A stretch of 64,000 nt of DNA, from positions 96,894 to 160,893 of the forward strand of contig CAVWVI010000005.1 in NCBI GenBank assembly GCA_963758495.1, in the 5' to 3' direction. Shown piece by piece: positions 57,165 through 59,603 of the stretch (positions are counted from its first letter, which is position 1; every line of letters starts with the position of its first letter). The position numbers and the translations under genes are program-made. Below the pieces are notes generated by a model. It did not search any database, was not told where the DNA came from, and saw only the letters and a program-made list of their open reading frames with translations. This stretch comes from Oligoflexia bacterium. GTDB lineage: Bacteria; Bdellovibrionota; UBA1018.

Positions 57165-59603
57165 ATGAACCGTAATGAATTTATTCTATTTTCAGCTCTA
57201 TTTCTTGCAGGATCTCCTTCCCTGGGTCTGGCTCAAGATCATTTAAGTGACCTACAAAAGGCCTTAAAATCTCAAGATAGAGAGCTTGTACAGGCTTTCC
57301 TACAATCATTAAGCCTTGAAGATCCAGAAACCCAGGCAATGCTCTCCAGAGCAGATGAAGACGGAAGATCTCCTCTCATTTCGGCTATTCGAGAAGGGCT
57401 GGGTTTTCCAATAATCCGCCGCCTTTTGAGCTTGGGTGCAGACGTGAATCAAGCTGATCGAGAAGGTAAAACCGCTTTAATTTATGCGGCAGAGAAAGGA
57501 CATATGGGACTCGTGCAGGAGCTTCTCAATAAAGGCGCTAAGGTCGATCATGTAGATAGCTTTGGGTGGACGGCTTTAGGACAGGCACTAGTAGCAACAG
57601 CCAATGAACAAGATCAGTTTAAAGTGCTACAGCTTTTTCTAAAATCAGGTGCCAGTCTGAATAATTCTTTTCCTTCTGATTCTCAGGCGTATTCGAATAC
57701 TTCGATTCATAACCAGCTTCAGGGGCGAACGATCCTAACATGGGCAATTGAATCTAAATCAATGCGATTGACAAGTTTAATTCTTCGTTCTCTAAAGAAG
57801 CAACAAGCCTGGGTGAACCAAAGGGATGGTCGCGGCAGAACACCCTTAATCCAGGCGGTGGAATCAGGCCAGTTTCAACTTGTAGAAGATCTTGTAAGTG
57901 ACGGAGCCGATGCAACGATTCAAGACAATCTCGGTTGGACAGCGTTGAGCAAGCTTTTGGCGCAAGCCCGGAACCCTAAAGCATCTCAGCAGAGCTTTGG
58001 GCAAGAACAGATGAAATGGATGAAGGTATTTTTAGACCAAGGTAAGAAAGCCGATCAAATCTTTCCAGGAACAGAAGCAGCCTACTTAAATAAAAAGGAA
58101 TTCCAGAAATTTCAAGGCCGTTCAATACTTGCATGGGCCGTAGAGAATGATCGCGCAGATGTGATTGCACTTTTGCTTGAGCAGGGTACAGACCTAGGCC
58201 CCTTGGAGCCACTCCTGATGTCCTCGATTGAACGGGGTAATCTAGAAATGTTGGCACTCGTGGTGGGCCAGGGTGTTGATCTTTGTCCGAAGCAGCCGTT
58301 AAATTTCAGCGGTCACACACCTTTGACCTTGGCAGCAGAAAAGGGAAAAGTTGAGGTTGTGAAGTTCATATTGAATTCTCTCTCGCACGCAGAAGATGCT
58401 TCGATATCTCTGAACGAGTGCGATCTAAATGGGATTGGTAAAGATGGAAGGACTGCATTGGGTTGGGCCGGAGCGAAGGCAAATTTAAATGTGGCTCAAT
58501 TGATTATTCAAAAGGGAGAAGAGCAATTTTTTGGAGTATCGGAGTTAAGAAATATGCTGACAGCCGCGGGGACACCACAACTCAAAGGTAAATGGATCGA
58601 GTACTTCTCTGTTATCCAGTTATCAACTCGCTTAACAGATCTCTTGAATATAAAATCAGAGAGCGTTATCGCGTTTGAAGGTGAACAATTAGAAAATCAA
58701 AACCCTGGATTTCTTCCCAGCGTAGGTGCTCTCAAATCCTTGATGAATCAAAAAGCCAAGGAGCTTTACTACCAGGAACAAGAGCAAGAAATTCATAACC
58801 AGTCTCAAAGTGCGATGAAGATAGTTGAACCGAGAACAGATGAAGTGGGTGCCTCTAGTTCAAGCAATCTAAGCAAAATCTCACCTCATTCAGAAATAGC
58901 TTCGTGTATGGTTTGTTTGGATACGATCATGGTTGGAGATGAGCAGCCCTTTGGACCAGCCGGATGTTCGTGTAATATGATTTGTTCGAATTCTGAATGT
59001 ACTGAATATTTCTGTAGCACGATAGTCAATCGTGATGGCGAAGACGTGAGTCGTTGTCCAGGCTGTAAAAGTCCTGTTTATTCAAAGTATTTAGTAGAGC
59101 ATGGTGTAAGTGAAGAAGATGCAAAAAAGGTCCGCAATCGATGCGTCGATATTCTAAATTCACAGCAATTAGGTTGGAGATTTTGTCCGACAACGGGTTG
59201 TGCTGGAGGACGGGTAGTCCAACCTCACGAAAAATCTGCGTATTACTCTTGTATTCTGTGTGGCCATGAAGGTTGCATTAAGTGTGGAAGTGAGCACAAG
59301 GGTGATTGTGCGAATTATGAAAAAGAAATGAAAGAATTTGAAAACCTCTTACGTTTAGGAGCAATGGCTCCCCCGAAGAATAGACCTGCCGACCCAAATC
59401 ACCCAGATTATATGAAGGGCCGTTTTCGCCCTTGTTATCACTGTGGAGTGATTACAGAGCGAGATGGAGGATGCTCACATATAACCTGTAAGAGATGCCG
59501 TGCTGAATGGGAATGGAACTGGGGGCCTTATGAAAGAGGTAAATTTACTATGACAGACCAGCTTCCAATGAAGTTTAAGCCGCTTAAGGCGCCACACTGG
59601 TAG
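57165..59603 (+). CDS. Secreted ankyrin-repeat + RING-between-RING (RBR) E3 ubiquitin ligase-like protein
   Basis: Signal peptide; ankyrin repeats (GRSPLISA, GKTALIYAA, GRTPLIQA, GHTPLTLAA); RING1-like CMVC...CPGC; IBR WRFCPTTGC...CILC...CIKC..EH..C; RING2 RPCYHCG..TERDGGCSHITCKRC. Confidence 0.85.
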   Translation: MNRNEFILFSALFLAGSPSLGLAQDHLSDLQKALKSQDRELVQAFLQSLSLEDPETQAMLSRADEDGRSPLISAIREGLGFPIIRRLLSLGADVNQADREGKTALIYAAEKGHMGLVQELLNKGAKVDHVDSFGWTALGQALVATANEQDQFKVLQLFLKSGASLNNSFPSDSQAYSNTSIHNQLQGRTILTWAIESKSMRLTSLILRSLKKQQAWVNQRDGRGRTPLIQAVESGQFQLVEDLVSDGADATIQDNLGWTALSKLLAQARNPKASQQSFGQEQMKWMKVFLDQGKKADQIFPGTEAAYLNKKEFQKFQGRSILAWAVENDRADVIALLLEQGTDLGPLEPLLMSSIERGNLEMLALVVGQGVDLCPKQPLNFSGHTPLTLAAEKGKVEVVKFILNSLSHAEDASISLNECDLNGIGKDGRTALGWAGAKANLNVAQLIIQKGEEQFFGVSELRNMLTAAGTPQLKGKWIEYFSVIQLSTRLTDLLNIKSESVIAFEGEQLENQNPGFLPSVGALKSLMNQKAKELYYQEQEQEIHNQSQSAMKIVEPRTDEVGASSSSNLSKISPHSEIASCMVCLDTIMVGDEQPFGPAGCSCNMICSNSECTEYFCSTIVNRDGEDVSRCPGCKSPVYSKYLVEHGVSEEDAKKVRNRCVDILNSQQLGWRFCPTTGCAGGRVVQPHEKSAYYSCILCGHEGCIKCGSEHKGDCANYEKEMKEFENLLRLGAMAPPKNRPADPNHPDYMKGRFRPCYHCGVITERDGGCSHITCKRCRAEWEWNWGPYERGKFTMTDQLPMKFKPLKAPHW

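Follow-up and report, generated by a model that had tools for sequence, protein, structure and literature searches.

A bacterial ankyrin-repeat protein with an RBR-type ubiquitin-ligase module and a signal-peptide-like leader

Can a bacterium possess a ubiquitin ligase of the RBR type, with its RING1, IBR and Rcat (RING2) modules, and what would it use such a protein for? Bacteria have copied or reinvented several eukaryotic ubiquitin-ligase types, namely RING/U-box, F-box, HECT-like and NEL. In the parts of four articles that were available to us, RBRs are treated as eukaryotic enzymes only (PMC12591485, PMC4327156, PMC8003559, PMC11354881), and no bacterial ligase of this type came up in full-text literature searches, which did not extend to supplements and subscription journals. 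Positions 57165-59603 of a 64,000-nucleotide stretch from an Oligoflexia bacterium (the window; C5:96894-160893 of the source genome, G000) had been read in a preliminary description, made from the sequence alone, as the gene of a secreted ankyrin-RBR ligase. The frame proved to be open and encodes a protein of 812 residues, P0001, that combines ankyrin repeats (Ank_2, E value of 1.5e-42) with a RING1-IBR-Rcat module. From its sequence, we consider it reasonably likely that P0001 is an exported, host-directed, Cys-dependent ubiquitin E3 effector of the RBR type that would act in a eukaryotic host or prey cell. If active, a bacterial RBR would fill a gap in the ligase types known from bacteria.

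The layout of the gene and of its product is as follows (all features on the plus strand of the window).

57165..59603, +: open frame of P0001 with its stop codon, predicted exported ankyrin-RBR protein, 812 residues
57165..57233, +: signal-peptide-like N-terminus, residues 1-23 (MNRNE / FILFSALFLAG / SPSLGLA), from a hydrophobicity script
57342..58574, +: ankyrin-repeat region, about residues 60-470, about 10 repeats by eye; from Pfam, limits approximate
58575..58904, +: linker, residues 471-580, with a conserved K-E-L-Y-Y-Q-E before RING1 that recurs in paralogues and in P0005
58905..59066, +: RING1 of the C4C4 type, residues 581-634, from column counts, parkin alignment and structural matches
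59184..59309, +: IBR domain, residues 674-715, from Pfam IBR (665-713) and column counts
59433..59525, +: Rcat (RING2) core, residues 757-787, from Pfam IBR_2 (755-786) and the alignment with parkin RING2
59472..59474, +: TGC codon of Cys770 (57165+769x3 = 59472), predicted catalytic, thioester-forming residue, with His772 at +2
59568..59600, +: conserved C-terminal tail M-K-F-K-P-L-K-A-P-H-W, residues 802-812, from column counts

The N-terminus, MNRNEFILFSALFLAGSPSLGLA/QD, has a mean Kyte-Doolittle value of 2.71 over the 10 residues from residue 6 according to a crude script, and by inspection it ends in a small-x-small site (...SPSLGLA/QD), a pattern that recurs in the paralogues and in neighbouring genes. 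This pattern would fit the Sec-type signal peptide of the preliminary description. The ankyrin region is recognised by Ank_2 in five stretches (144.5 bits, cut-off of 27.3), by Ank (1.2e-33) and by Ank_4 (3.5e-26). A homologue of 810 residues with 93% identity, P0002, is encoded in another public assembly. A precomputed Pfam list also assigns PF28177.1 to P0001, P0002 and P0004.

An RBR module supported by sequence, structure, language-model features and reciprocity

Homology of the C-terminal part of P0001 to RBR ligases is carried by four lines of evidence that agree. The Pfam profiles for IBR and Rcat, whose use the preliminary description had recommended, recognised the module narrowly. 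With residues 561-812 alone, IBR_2 scored 29.1 bits at residues 755-786, above its cut-off of 27, compared with 26.9 bits for the whole protein. The scores of IBR at residues 665-713 (22.6 bits alone, 20.4 bits in the whole protein; cut-off of 24.3) and of IBR_1 (24.4 and 22.5 bits, respectively; cut-off of 27) were below threshold. Such scores close to the thresholds, together with the tendency of cysteine-rich profiles to draw compositionally biased matches, would suit an explanation that the preliminary description had itself raised, namely that the Cys-rich region consists of unrelated zinc ribbons, RBR-like by cysteine spacing only. However, the order and continuity of the alignment argue otherwise. 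The single sequence of residues 561-812 used as a phmmer query matched the IBR-REP-RING2 region of parkin (E value of 1.3e-5) and Rcat of ARIH1 (3e-3). A profile built from the four intact paralogous RBR domains of the source genome (A1) aligned in one piece, over its positions 16-228, with RING1, IBR and RING2 of parkin in the correct order (1.7e-9), the next matches being ARIH2 (3.4e-5) and HOIL-1 (3e-3).

We then considered the predicted structure. An alignment of 59 rows (A2), with identities to the query down to 22%, was the basis of all column counts given below and of an AlphaFold2 model of the RBR part, which had a mean pLDDT of 91.2 and a pTM of 0.72. A Foldseek search of the PDB with this model yielded 49 matches with E values of 1e-3 or less; every listed row was an RBR ligase, including HOIL-1 (3.7e-9), ARIH2, parkin, HHARI, HOIP and RNF216. 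With VIA-align, the RING1-IBR part matched HOIL-1L (Z of 6.7, rmsd of 6.2, 140 aligned residues) and parkin-UbcH7 (Z of 5.5, rmsd of 5.3, 124 aligned). Rcat matched RING2 of HOIL-1 (Z of 4.9, rmsd of 3.2, 67 aligned) and of parkin (Z of 3.6, rmsd of 2.5, 54 aligned, 35% identity), and RING1 was matched by the HOIP RING1-UBE2L3 entry with a Z of 3.7. Over both methods, the listed structural matches were RBR ligases, save one low-ranked RING-type entry. TM-scores over the whole model reached only about 0.2-0.36, as is usual when flexible linkers join three separate modules.

The other two lines point the same way. The nearest ESM-Atlas clusters were all eukaryotic RBR/IBR families (best score of 0.96, with 204 of 256 features shared). 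Conversely, a search of 1.84 billion cluster representatives with A1 retrieved 834 proteins at an E value of 1e-3 or less, 99 at 1e-10 and 35 at 1e-30. Its weaker matches, from about 4.5e-12 downwards, include canonical RBRs with 'GGCNHM...FCWxC' motifs, and the profile reaches a fungal protein, P0150, named 'RBR-type E3 ubiquitin transferase', at 2e-8. Because the four lines agree, we reject the zinc-ribbon explanation, which we regard as most improbable.

Zinc ligands, catalytic cysteine and a modified Rcat

All eight ligand cysteines of RING1 are present (C581, C584, C601, C603, C607, C612, C631 and C634). They define a C4C4 rather than a C3HC4 type, aligned with RING1 of parkin. C581 and C584 are found in all 59 rows of A2 and the other six in 51 to 58 of them. 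RING1 had previously been called somewhat degenerate. What remains of this is an unusual spacing, caused by the inserted residues N604 (a gap in 44 of 59 rows), S608 and N609 (gaps in 57 rows each), which are rare or unique to P0001 and account for the impression of degeneracy, whereas no ligand is missing. The IBR domain follows the C6HC pattern, with C674, C679, C696 and C699 in every row and C704, C707, H711 and C715 in 53 to 56 rows.

Rcat reads C757-x2-C760-x9-C770-x-H772-x2-C775-x2-C778. In its first zinc site, C757, C760 and C775 are invariant and C778 is present in 58 of 59 rows. Cys770, in the motif ERDGGCSHITC (residues 765-775), is the residue that the preliminary description had designated as catalytic from the TGC codon at 59472, and its presence in 59 of 59 aligned relatives is in keeping with that assignment. 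It is followed by Asn in 54 of the 59 rows and by Ser in P0001. The His that was noted along with it is also present, as His772, at Cys+2 of P0001, and is shared by 5 of 59 family rows only. In the part of one review available to us, a His two residues past the catalytic Cys is described as the base which removes the proton from the acceptor lysine (PMC11354881).

The family departs from the eukaryotic enzymes in the second Rcat zinc site. The parkin sequence E-W-C-W-N-C-G aligns with E-W-E-W-N-W-G of P0001, and across the family the first of the replaced Cys positions is occupied by H (43 rows), D (11), N (4) or E (1), and by Cys in none. Judging from the alignment, the second site, as it exists in eukaryotic RBRs, is lost in the family, and with its cysteines gone Rcat may fold or work differently. 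Most members carry W-H-W-N-x-G and an 'H-D' further downstream, with His in 41 and Asp in 45 of 59 rows. The downstream His and the His at Cys+2 are mutually exclusive (0 of 5 rows with the latter versus 41 of 54 rows without it), although the sequences are related and the numbers small. This exclusion suggests that the general base has moved or that a metal site has been rebuilt with histidines. Five zinc ions per RBR module would be expected for P0001, compared with six in canonical RBRs, and members of the 'WHWN...HD...PHF' kind may bind a sixth by way of histidines. At the very C-terminus, the family shares the consensus M-x-Y-x-P-L-x-x-P-H-F, with Y/F804 in 57, P806 in 39, H811 in 40 and an aromatic last residue in 46 of 59 rows, and this tail was modelled with AlphaFold2 pLDDT values of 95-98. 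RING1, IBR and an Rcat with its catalytic Cys and the Cys+2 His are thus all found in P0001 and the second Rcat zinc site is not. Since the other modules and their order are intact, the loss makes P0001 a variant of the RBR class rather than a non-member.

The same features bear on whether the module could be catalytic at all. P0001 might be an inert mimic. Secreted as a scaffold or decoy, it would use its ankyrin repeats and the surfaces of RING1, IBR and Rcat to capture E2~ubiquitin, chains of ubiquitin or cullin-RING ligases of the host, and would block or redirect host ubiquitination without forming a thioester. The loss of the second Rcat zinc site in every family member, the absence of the canonical Cys+2 His from 54 of 59 rows and the lack of any recognisable autoinhibitory or activating domain would fit such a role. 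However, Cys770 is invariant across rows down to 22% identity. Its counterpart in canonical RBRs, as in parkin, is not a zinc ligand, and the invariance of a non-ligand cysteine is hard to explain without catalysis. The Asn at Cys+1 is kept in most rows, and P0001 itself keeps His772. On balance, we regard an inert mimic as unlikely and favour a Cys-dependent ligase. If active, P0001 would be a compact RBR of natural origin that lacks both the second Rcat zinc site and the autoinhibitory domains common in the class (no Ubl, REP or Ariadne-type domain is recognisable in it), and so a test case for what Rcat needs in transthiolation and aminolysis.

Bacterial origin, family and relation to known ligases

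RBR modules are otherwise eukaryotic and the nearest ESM-Atlas clusters are all 100% Eukaryota, which raises the possibility that the gene stems from eukaryotic or giant-virus contamination or lies on a chimeric contig. The source genome (3,662,278 bp in 5 contigs, 92.1% complete, 2.12% contamination) contains five RBR loci on four of its 5 contigs, C1, C2, C3 (two loci) and C5. Apart from the gene in the window, they are the following.

C2:78081-80528: RBR paralogue of 825-838 residues, 52% identical
C3:745318-747777: RBR paralogue of 818 residues
C3:741772-742881: RBR paralogue split into two frames by one TAG
C1:117052-118644: RBR paralogue of 527 residues, 31% identical

The window carries ordinary Gram-negative genes, for TolC, Kup and pumps of the RND and MFS types, as well as IS21 and IS66 elements. 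No interruption is seen in the RBR gene, its product starts with a leader of the bacterial type, and the next gene follows after 36 nucleotides. Its relatives are found on bacterial contigs of metagenome-assembled genomes (MAGs), one of the proteins on a contig of 2.29 Mb. Viral contigs gave no match to [FY]RPCY[YH]CG, a single short pattern that cannot show absence. The gene is bacterial, and contamination or a chimera is hardly credible.

As for the taxonomic position of the source genome, its RpoB is 87% identical to a 'MAG: bacterium' protein and at most 67% identical to those of named taxa (Cystobacter, 67%; Myxococcales and Bdellovibrionales MAGs, 66%; an Oligoflexia MAG, 65%). The Kup potassium transporter encoded at window positions 27440-29392 shares 83% identity with its counterpart in Edaphobacter modestus (Acidobacteriota) and 66-67% with those of Planctomycetota MAGs. 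With RpoB at no more than 67% identity to named taxa, this value indicates that the kup gene was probably acquired by recent horizontal transfer. Kup was therefore dropped as a taxonomic marker in favour of rpoB.

P0001 belongs, on sequence criteria, to a distinct bacterial RBR family and not to an animal subfamily. A motif script was applied to 153 proteins, the query and the best hits of the A1 search. The family pattern (...C-x(3-5)-[HDNE]-[WF]-[NTSI]-x-G) was present in 65 of them and the canonical pattern (...C-x2-C) in 19, while 69 matched neither regular expression. The top 66 A1 hits were nearly all of the family type, the canonical ones appearing only from about 4.5e-12 downwards. A quick maximum-likelihood tree was restricted to proteins covering 180 or more of the 249 profile positions, which left 115 (38 of the 153 were dropped for short coverage). 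In it, one branch set all 55 family-type rows and 19 unclassified ones against all 16 canonical and 25 unclassified rows. This dividing branch is weak (SH-aLRT of 79). The labels were drawn from a motif that lies inside the alignment, so the tree is consistent with a single origin of the family but is no proof of it. P0001 itself groups with P0002-P0005, P0007 and P0009, a cluster of seven members with an SH-aLRT of 99.

The architecture of P0001 is common in the family. Ank_2 matches 33 of the 59 A2 rows, and four more rows are RBR parts cut from ankyrin proteins; the hydrophobicity script detected N-terminal hydrophobic leaders in 36 of 57 family members that start with Met. Pfam detects the RBR part poorly, with IBR reaching 30 and IBR_2 5 of the 59 rows at an E value of 1e-3 or less, which explains why public records speak merely of an ankyrin repeat protein, as in 'MAG: ankyrin repeat domain-containing protein [Bdellovibrionia bacterium]'. 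Annotated in this way, the family is invisible to effector surveys.

The loci of relatives were sought with a 16-row alignment (A3). Family members with a titled record belong to MAGs that bear the labels Bdellovibrionia (L170, L172), Bdellovibrionales (L171) and Oligoflexia (L185). The distribution is patchy. In a phylum sample of 401 genomes that included the source genome, four had matches at an E value of 1e-5 or less, all in the family-level group of the source genome (G000 itself and 3 of 57 others), with none in the other groups searched. Word-index protein searches returned 4 relatives for the RBR part and 3 for the downstream neighbour; an exhaustive hidden Markov model (HMM) search found many more, so that the low numbers reflect a sensitivity limit. 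One of the related genomes, G209, has three RBR-family genes in tandem (C176:7877-15282; L181, L178 and L175) and two more on its contig C219. These copies are devoid of ankyrin similarity to the query and have no neighbour of the BTB-fold type described below.

Among known ligases, the preliminary description had compared P0001 with ANKIB1 and the Ariadne proteins. ANKIB1 has its ankyrin repeats N-terminal to the RBR, as does P0001, and the 'GGC-x-H-x-x-C' motif is common to both; ARIH2 and HHARI are also among the sequence and structural matches. Nevertheless, the Ariadne-like label does not hold. No Pfam family for the Ariadne domain matches P0001 at an E value of 1 or less, and the protein ends about 25 residues past W-x-W-N-x-G. 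With the family profile, ARIH2 scores 3.4e-5 versus 1.7e-9 for parkin, the His at Cys+2 is shared by few members, the second zinc-site cysteines are replaced, and the family stands opposite all canonical 'FCWxC' RBRs across the weak split of the quick tree.

By sequence, the best relative of solved structure is parkin (PDB 4i1f, 5c9v and 5c1z, among others). The two proteins share the order RING1-IBR-(linker helix)-RING2, the C6HC pattern of the IBR, the first Rcat zinc site and a catalytic Cys with His at +2 (GGCSH in P0001, GGCMH in parkin). In contrast to parkin, P0001 has no Ubl, RING0 or recognisable REP, its RING1 is of the C4C4 type, and it has about 10 N-terminal ankyrin repeats, a signal-peptide-like leader and a family-specific C-terminal tail. 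A bacterial parallel is the F-box/ankyrin protein AnkB of Legionella (title of PDB 5k35), which likewise joins a eukaryote-like ligase element to a repeat domain. AnkB and other bacterial E3-mimic effectors, of the U-box, NEL and HECT-like types, are exported and rely on host E1, E2 and ubiquitin.

Proposed role and the BTB/Skp1-fold neighbour

P0001 probably tampers with the ubiquitin system of a eukaryotic host. Its N-terminal leader would take it through Sec, and the type II secretion system of the genome, whose secretin GspD was detected with 493 bits (cut-off of 351), could release it. In profile searches of the source genome, VirB4 and TssC were not found and no type III secretin exceeded its cut-off. 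In a ubiquitin-containing compartment, RING1 would bind host E2~ubiquitin, and Cys770 of Rcat would accept the ubiquitin in a thioester bond before passing it on to targets that the ankyrin repeats may hold or select. Both ubiquitin and E2 would have to come from the host, as neither is detectable in the source genome; these are weak negatives, because the searches with PF00240 and PF00179 were also empty in all 14 control genomes. The same applies to the ATP/ADP translocase (PF03219), which had no match in the source genome or in the 14 controls. The F-box-like profile PF12937 had two matches in the source genome, both below its cut-off. The genome contains 24 open frames with ankyrin similarity at an E value of 1e-5 or less, four of which are the RBR paralogues. 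On contig C4, six or more ankyrin-like open frames are clustered within about 9 kb (C4:926036-935214).

Several points weigh against a host-directed ligase. Bdellovibrionia and Oligoflexia are known above all for preying on other bacteria, and bacterial prey lacks ubiquitin. A Sec leader would be unusual for an effector acting in the host cytosol; known bacterial E3-mimic effectors use type III or IV secretion signals, not Sec leaders. A protein with many cysteines would meet the oxidising periplasm en route. The structural Z-scores are modest, the best being 6.7 and none reaching 8, so the structural evidence is by itself moderate. Finally, no family member retains the two cysteines that lead the second zinc site of Rcat, and the His at Cys+2 is missing from all but five rows, though P0001 keeps it.

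Some of these points would be accommodated if the module worked outside the ubiquitin system, in the periplasm or the extracellular space, in predation on bacteria or in envelope biology. The zinc fingers and ankyrin repeats would then bind bacterial targets, or Cys770 would perform another acyl- or thiol-transfer or serve an unrecognised bacterial ubiquitin-like modifier. Most members of the family have a Sec-type leader, and its named relatives are Bdellovibrionia, Bdellovibrionales and Oligoflexia MAGs. Parts of the gene were found in 15 of the 17 sequencing runs listed, with small shares; the best run (0.23) is labelled soil metagenome and no host is indicated. None of the listed runs with the gene is an RNA run. 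In addition, ubiquitin-like systems of a divergent bacterial kind could have escaped the ubiquitin and E2 searches. However, the entire tripartite RBR architecture is conserved, and its sole known role is the relay of ubiquitin from E2 to Cys. The BTB/Skp1-fold partner and the 24 ankyrin frames are typical of eukaryote-directed proteins, and zinc-cysteine domains are ill-suited to the oxidising periplasm. We therefore judge a role outside the ubiquitin system to be quite unlikely, and retain that of a host-directed ligase, which would mean that soil or sediment bacteria affiliated with Bdellovibrionota associate with eukaryotes in a way so far overlooked.

The gene that follows the RBR gene, and a second copy of it, lie on the same strand.

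59640..60881, +: BTB/Skp1-fold and FGE-sulfatase-like gene, 413 residues, 36 nucleotides past the RBR stop codon; from Pfam and predicted fold
61007..62299, +: second BTB/Skp1-fold and FGE-like copy, 430 residues from GTG (a later ATG is possible); own HMM, E value of 3.8e-61

In both products, a signal-peptide-like leader precedes a conserved N-terminal domain, and the C-terminal domain is FGE-sulfatase-like (Pfam, 6.5e-7 and 1e-9). The N-terminal domain of the first (residues 30-150, 59727-60089) was modelled with AlphaFold2 from 10 sequences, with moderate confidence (pLDDT of 69.2, pTM of 0.62). Foldseek matched the model to KCTD5, KCTD9, KCTD15, KCTD1 and KCTD17 at 2e-5 with a probability of 1.00. 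VIA gave a Z of 11.2 for KCTD5 (rmsd of 3.5, 101 aligned residues) and 10.8 for Skp1 (rmsd of 2.6, 99 aligned). Overall, KCTD, Skp1, KLHL and KEAP1 BTB domains matched with Z-scores of 10-11.2 over about 90-104 residues, and all 50 listed rows were BTB/Skp1 proteins or designed proteins on a BTB domain. According to this model, the N-terminal domain has the BTB/POZ-Skp1 fold; KCTD-type and Skp1-type are indistinguishable, as their Z-scores are within 1 of each other. The likeness to KCTD-type proteins lies in the predicted fold. Unlike them, the neighbour is bacterial, has a leader and is fused to the FGE-sulfatase-like domain, and it has no Pfam match to BTB or BTB_2 at an E value of 1 or less; PF02214 has none in the whole genome at that threshold.

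Seven loci in three genomes have a BTB-fold gene immediately after the RBR gene: the window, the C2 locus, both C3 loci, L170 of a Bdellovibrionia MAG, where the BTB-fold gene is present in two copies, and L171 of a Bdellovibrionales MAG (which is also L174 of G218). In the source genome, 5 of the 6 genes with a BTB-fold domain adjoin an RBR gene. On C3, two RBR and BTB-fold cassettes lie in tandem (740978-747777; L003 and L004). The distal cassette, with an in-frame TAG that breaks its RBR gene and a BTB-fold gene cut to 240 residues, looks like a decaying duplicate.

The listed fold matches include several adaptors of cullin-3, such as those in the KCTD5/Cullin3 and KCTD7/Cullin3 entries (PDB titles). 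In the part of the source available to us, Ariadne-type RBRs are described as cooperating with neddylated cullin-RING ligases (PMC8460447). As KCTD and Skp1 proteins are adaptors of cullin ligases, the pairing of RBR and BTB-fold genes is, by analogy, suggestive of a functional link between their products. The co-encoded, exported BTB/Skp1-fold protein may be a second mimic, of the host cullin-ligase adaptors. Complex predictions with the RBR domain (A2) and the BTB-fold domain (A4) scored 0.00 in both runs; they were made without controls and say nothing on binding. The pair represents a testable two-gene cassette.

A more specific proposal combines these elements. P0001 could represent an undescribed class of bacterial RBR with a remodelled Rcat, in which the second zinc site is lost or rebuilt with histidines, the base His is located at Cys+2 or in the 'HD' and never in both, and the P-H-F tail packs on Rcat. 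It would be exported through Sec and the type II secretion system with its BTB/Skp1-fold partner, and hijack the host's 'E3-E3' relay between cullin-RING ligases and RBRs. Taken as a whole, this proposal is tentative and more doubtful than not. Were the 'E3-E3' cassette real, it would mean that a Bdellovibrionota lineage preys on, or resides in, eukaryotic cells.

On its other side, the RBR gene adjoins a block dense in insertion sequences (window positions 49438-57096), with the following elements.

49438-50316: IS66-family transposase
50796-53139: IS21 istA/istB
53669-54430: second IstB
54788-55441: HTH_3 / YafQ-like pair resembling a toxin-antitoxin system
55756-57096: rve-like transposase, divergent from the RBR gene, with 68 nucleotides between them

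Scans for promoters and terminators remained at background (13 found versus 9.7 expected, and 6 versus 5.1, respectively). The GC skew is positive (0.18) at positions 58001-62000, which cover the C-terminal half of the RBR gene and the two downstream genes, and is about 0 to 0.1 elsewhere. Just past the second BTB-fold/FGE-like gene, the minus strand encodes a GLUG-motif protein (63249-63923). At the other end of the window are a frame of 1918 residues, the largest in the window (6558-12314), and a KaiC-like double-domain ATPase (1962-3512), which matches the NCBIfam KaiC model with an E value of 1.3e-58, under the equivalog cut-off.

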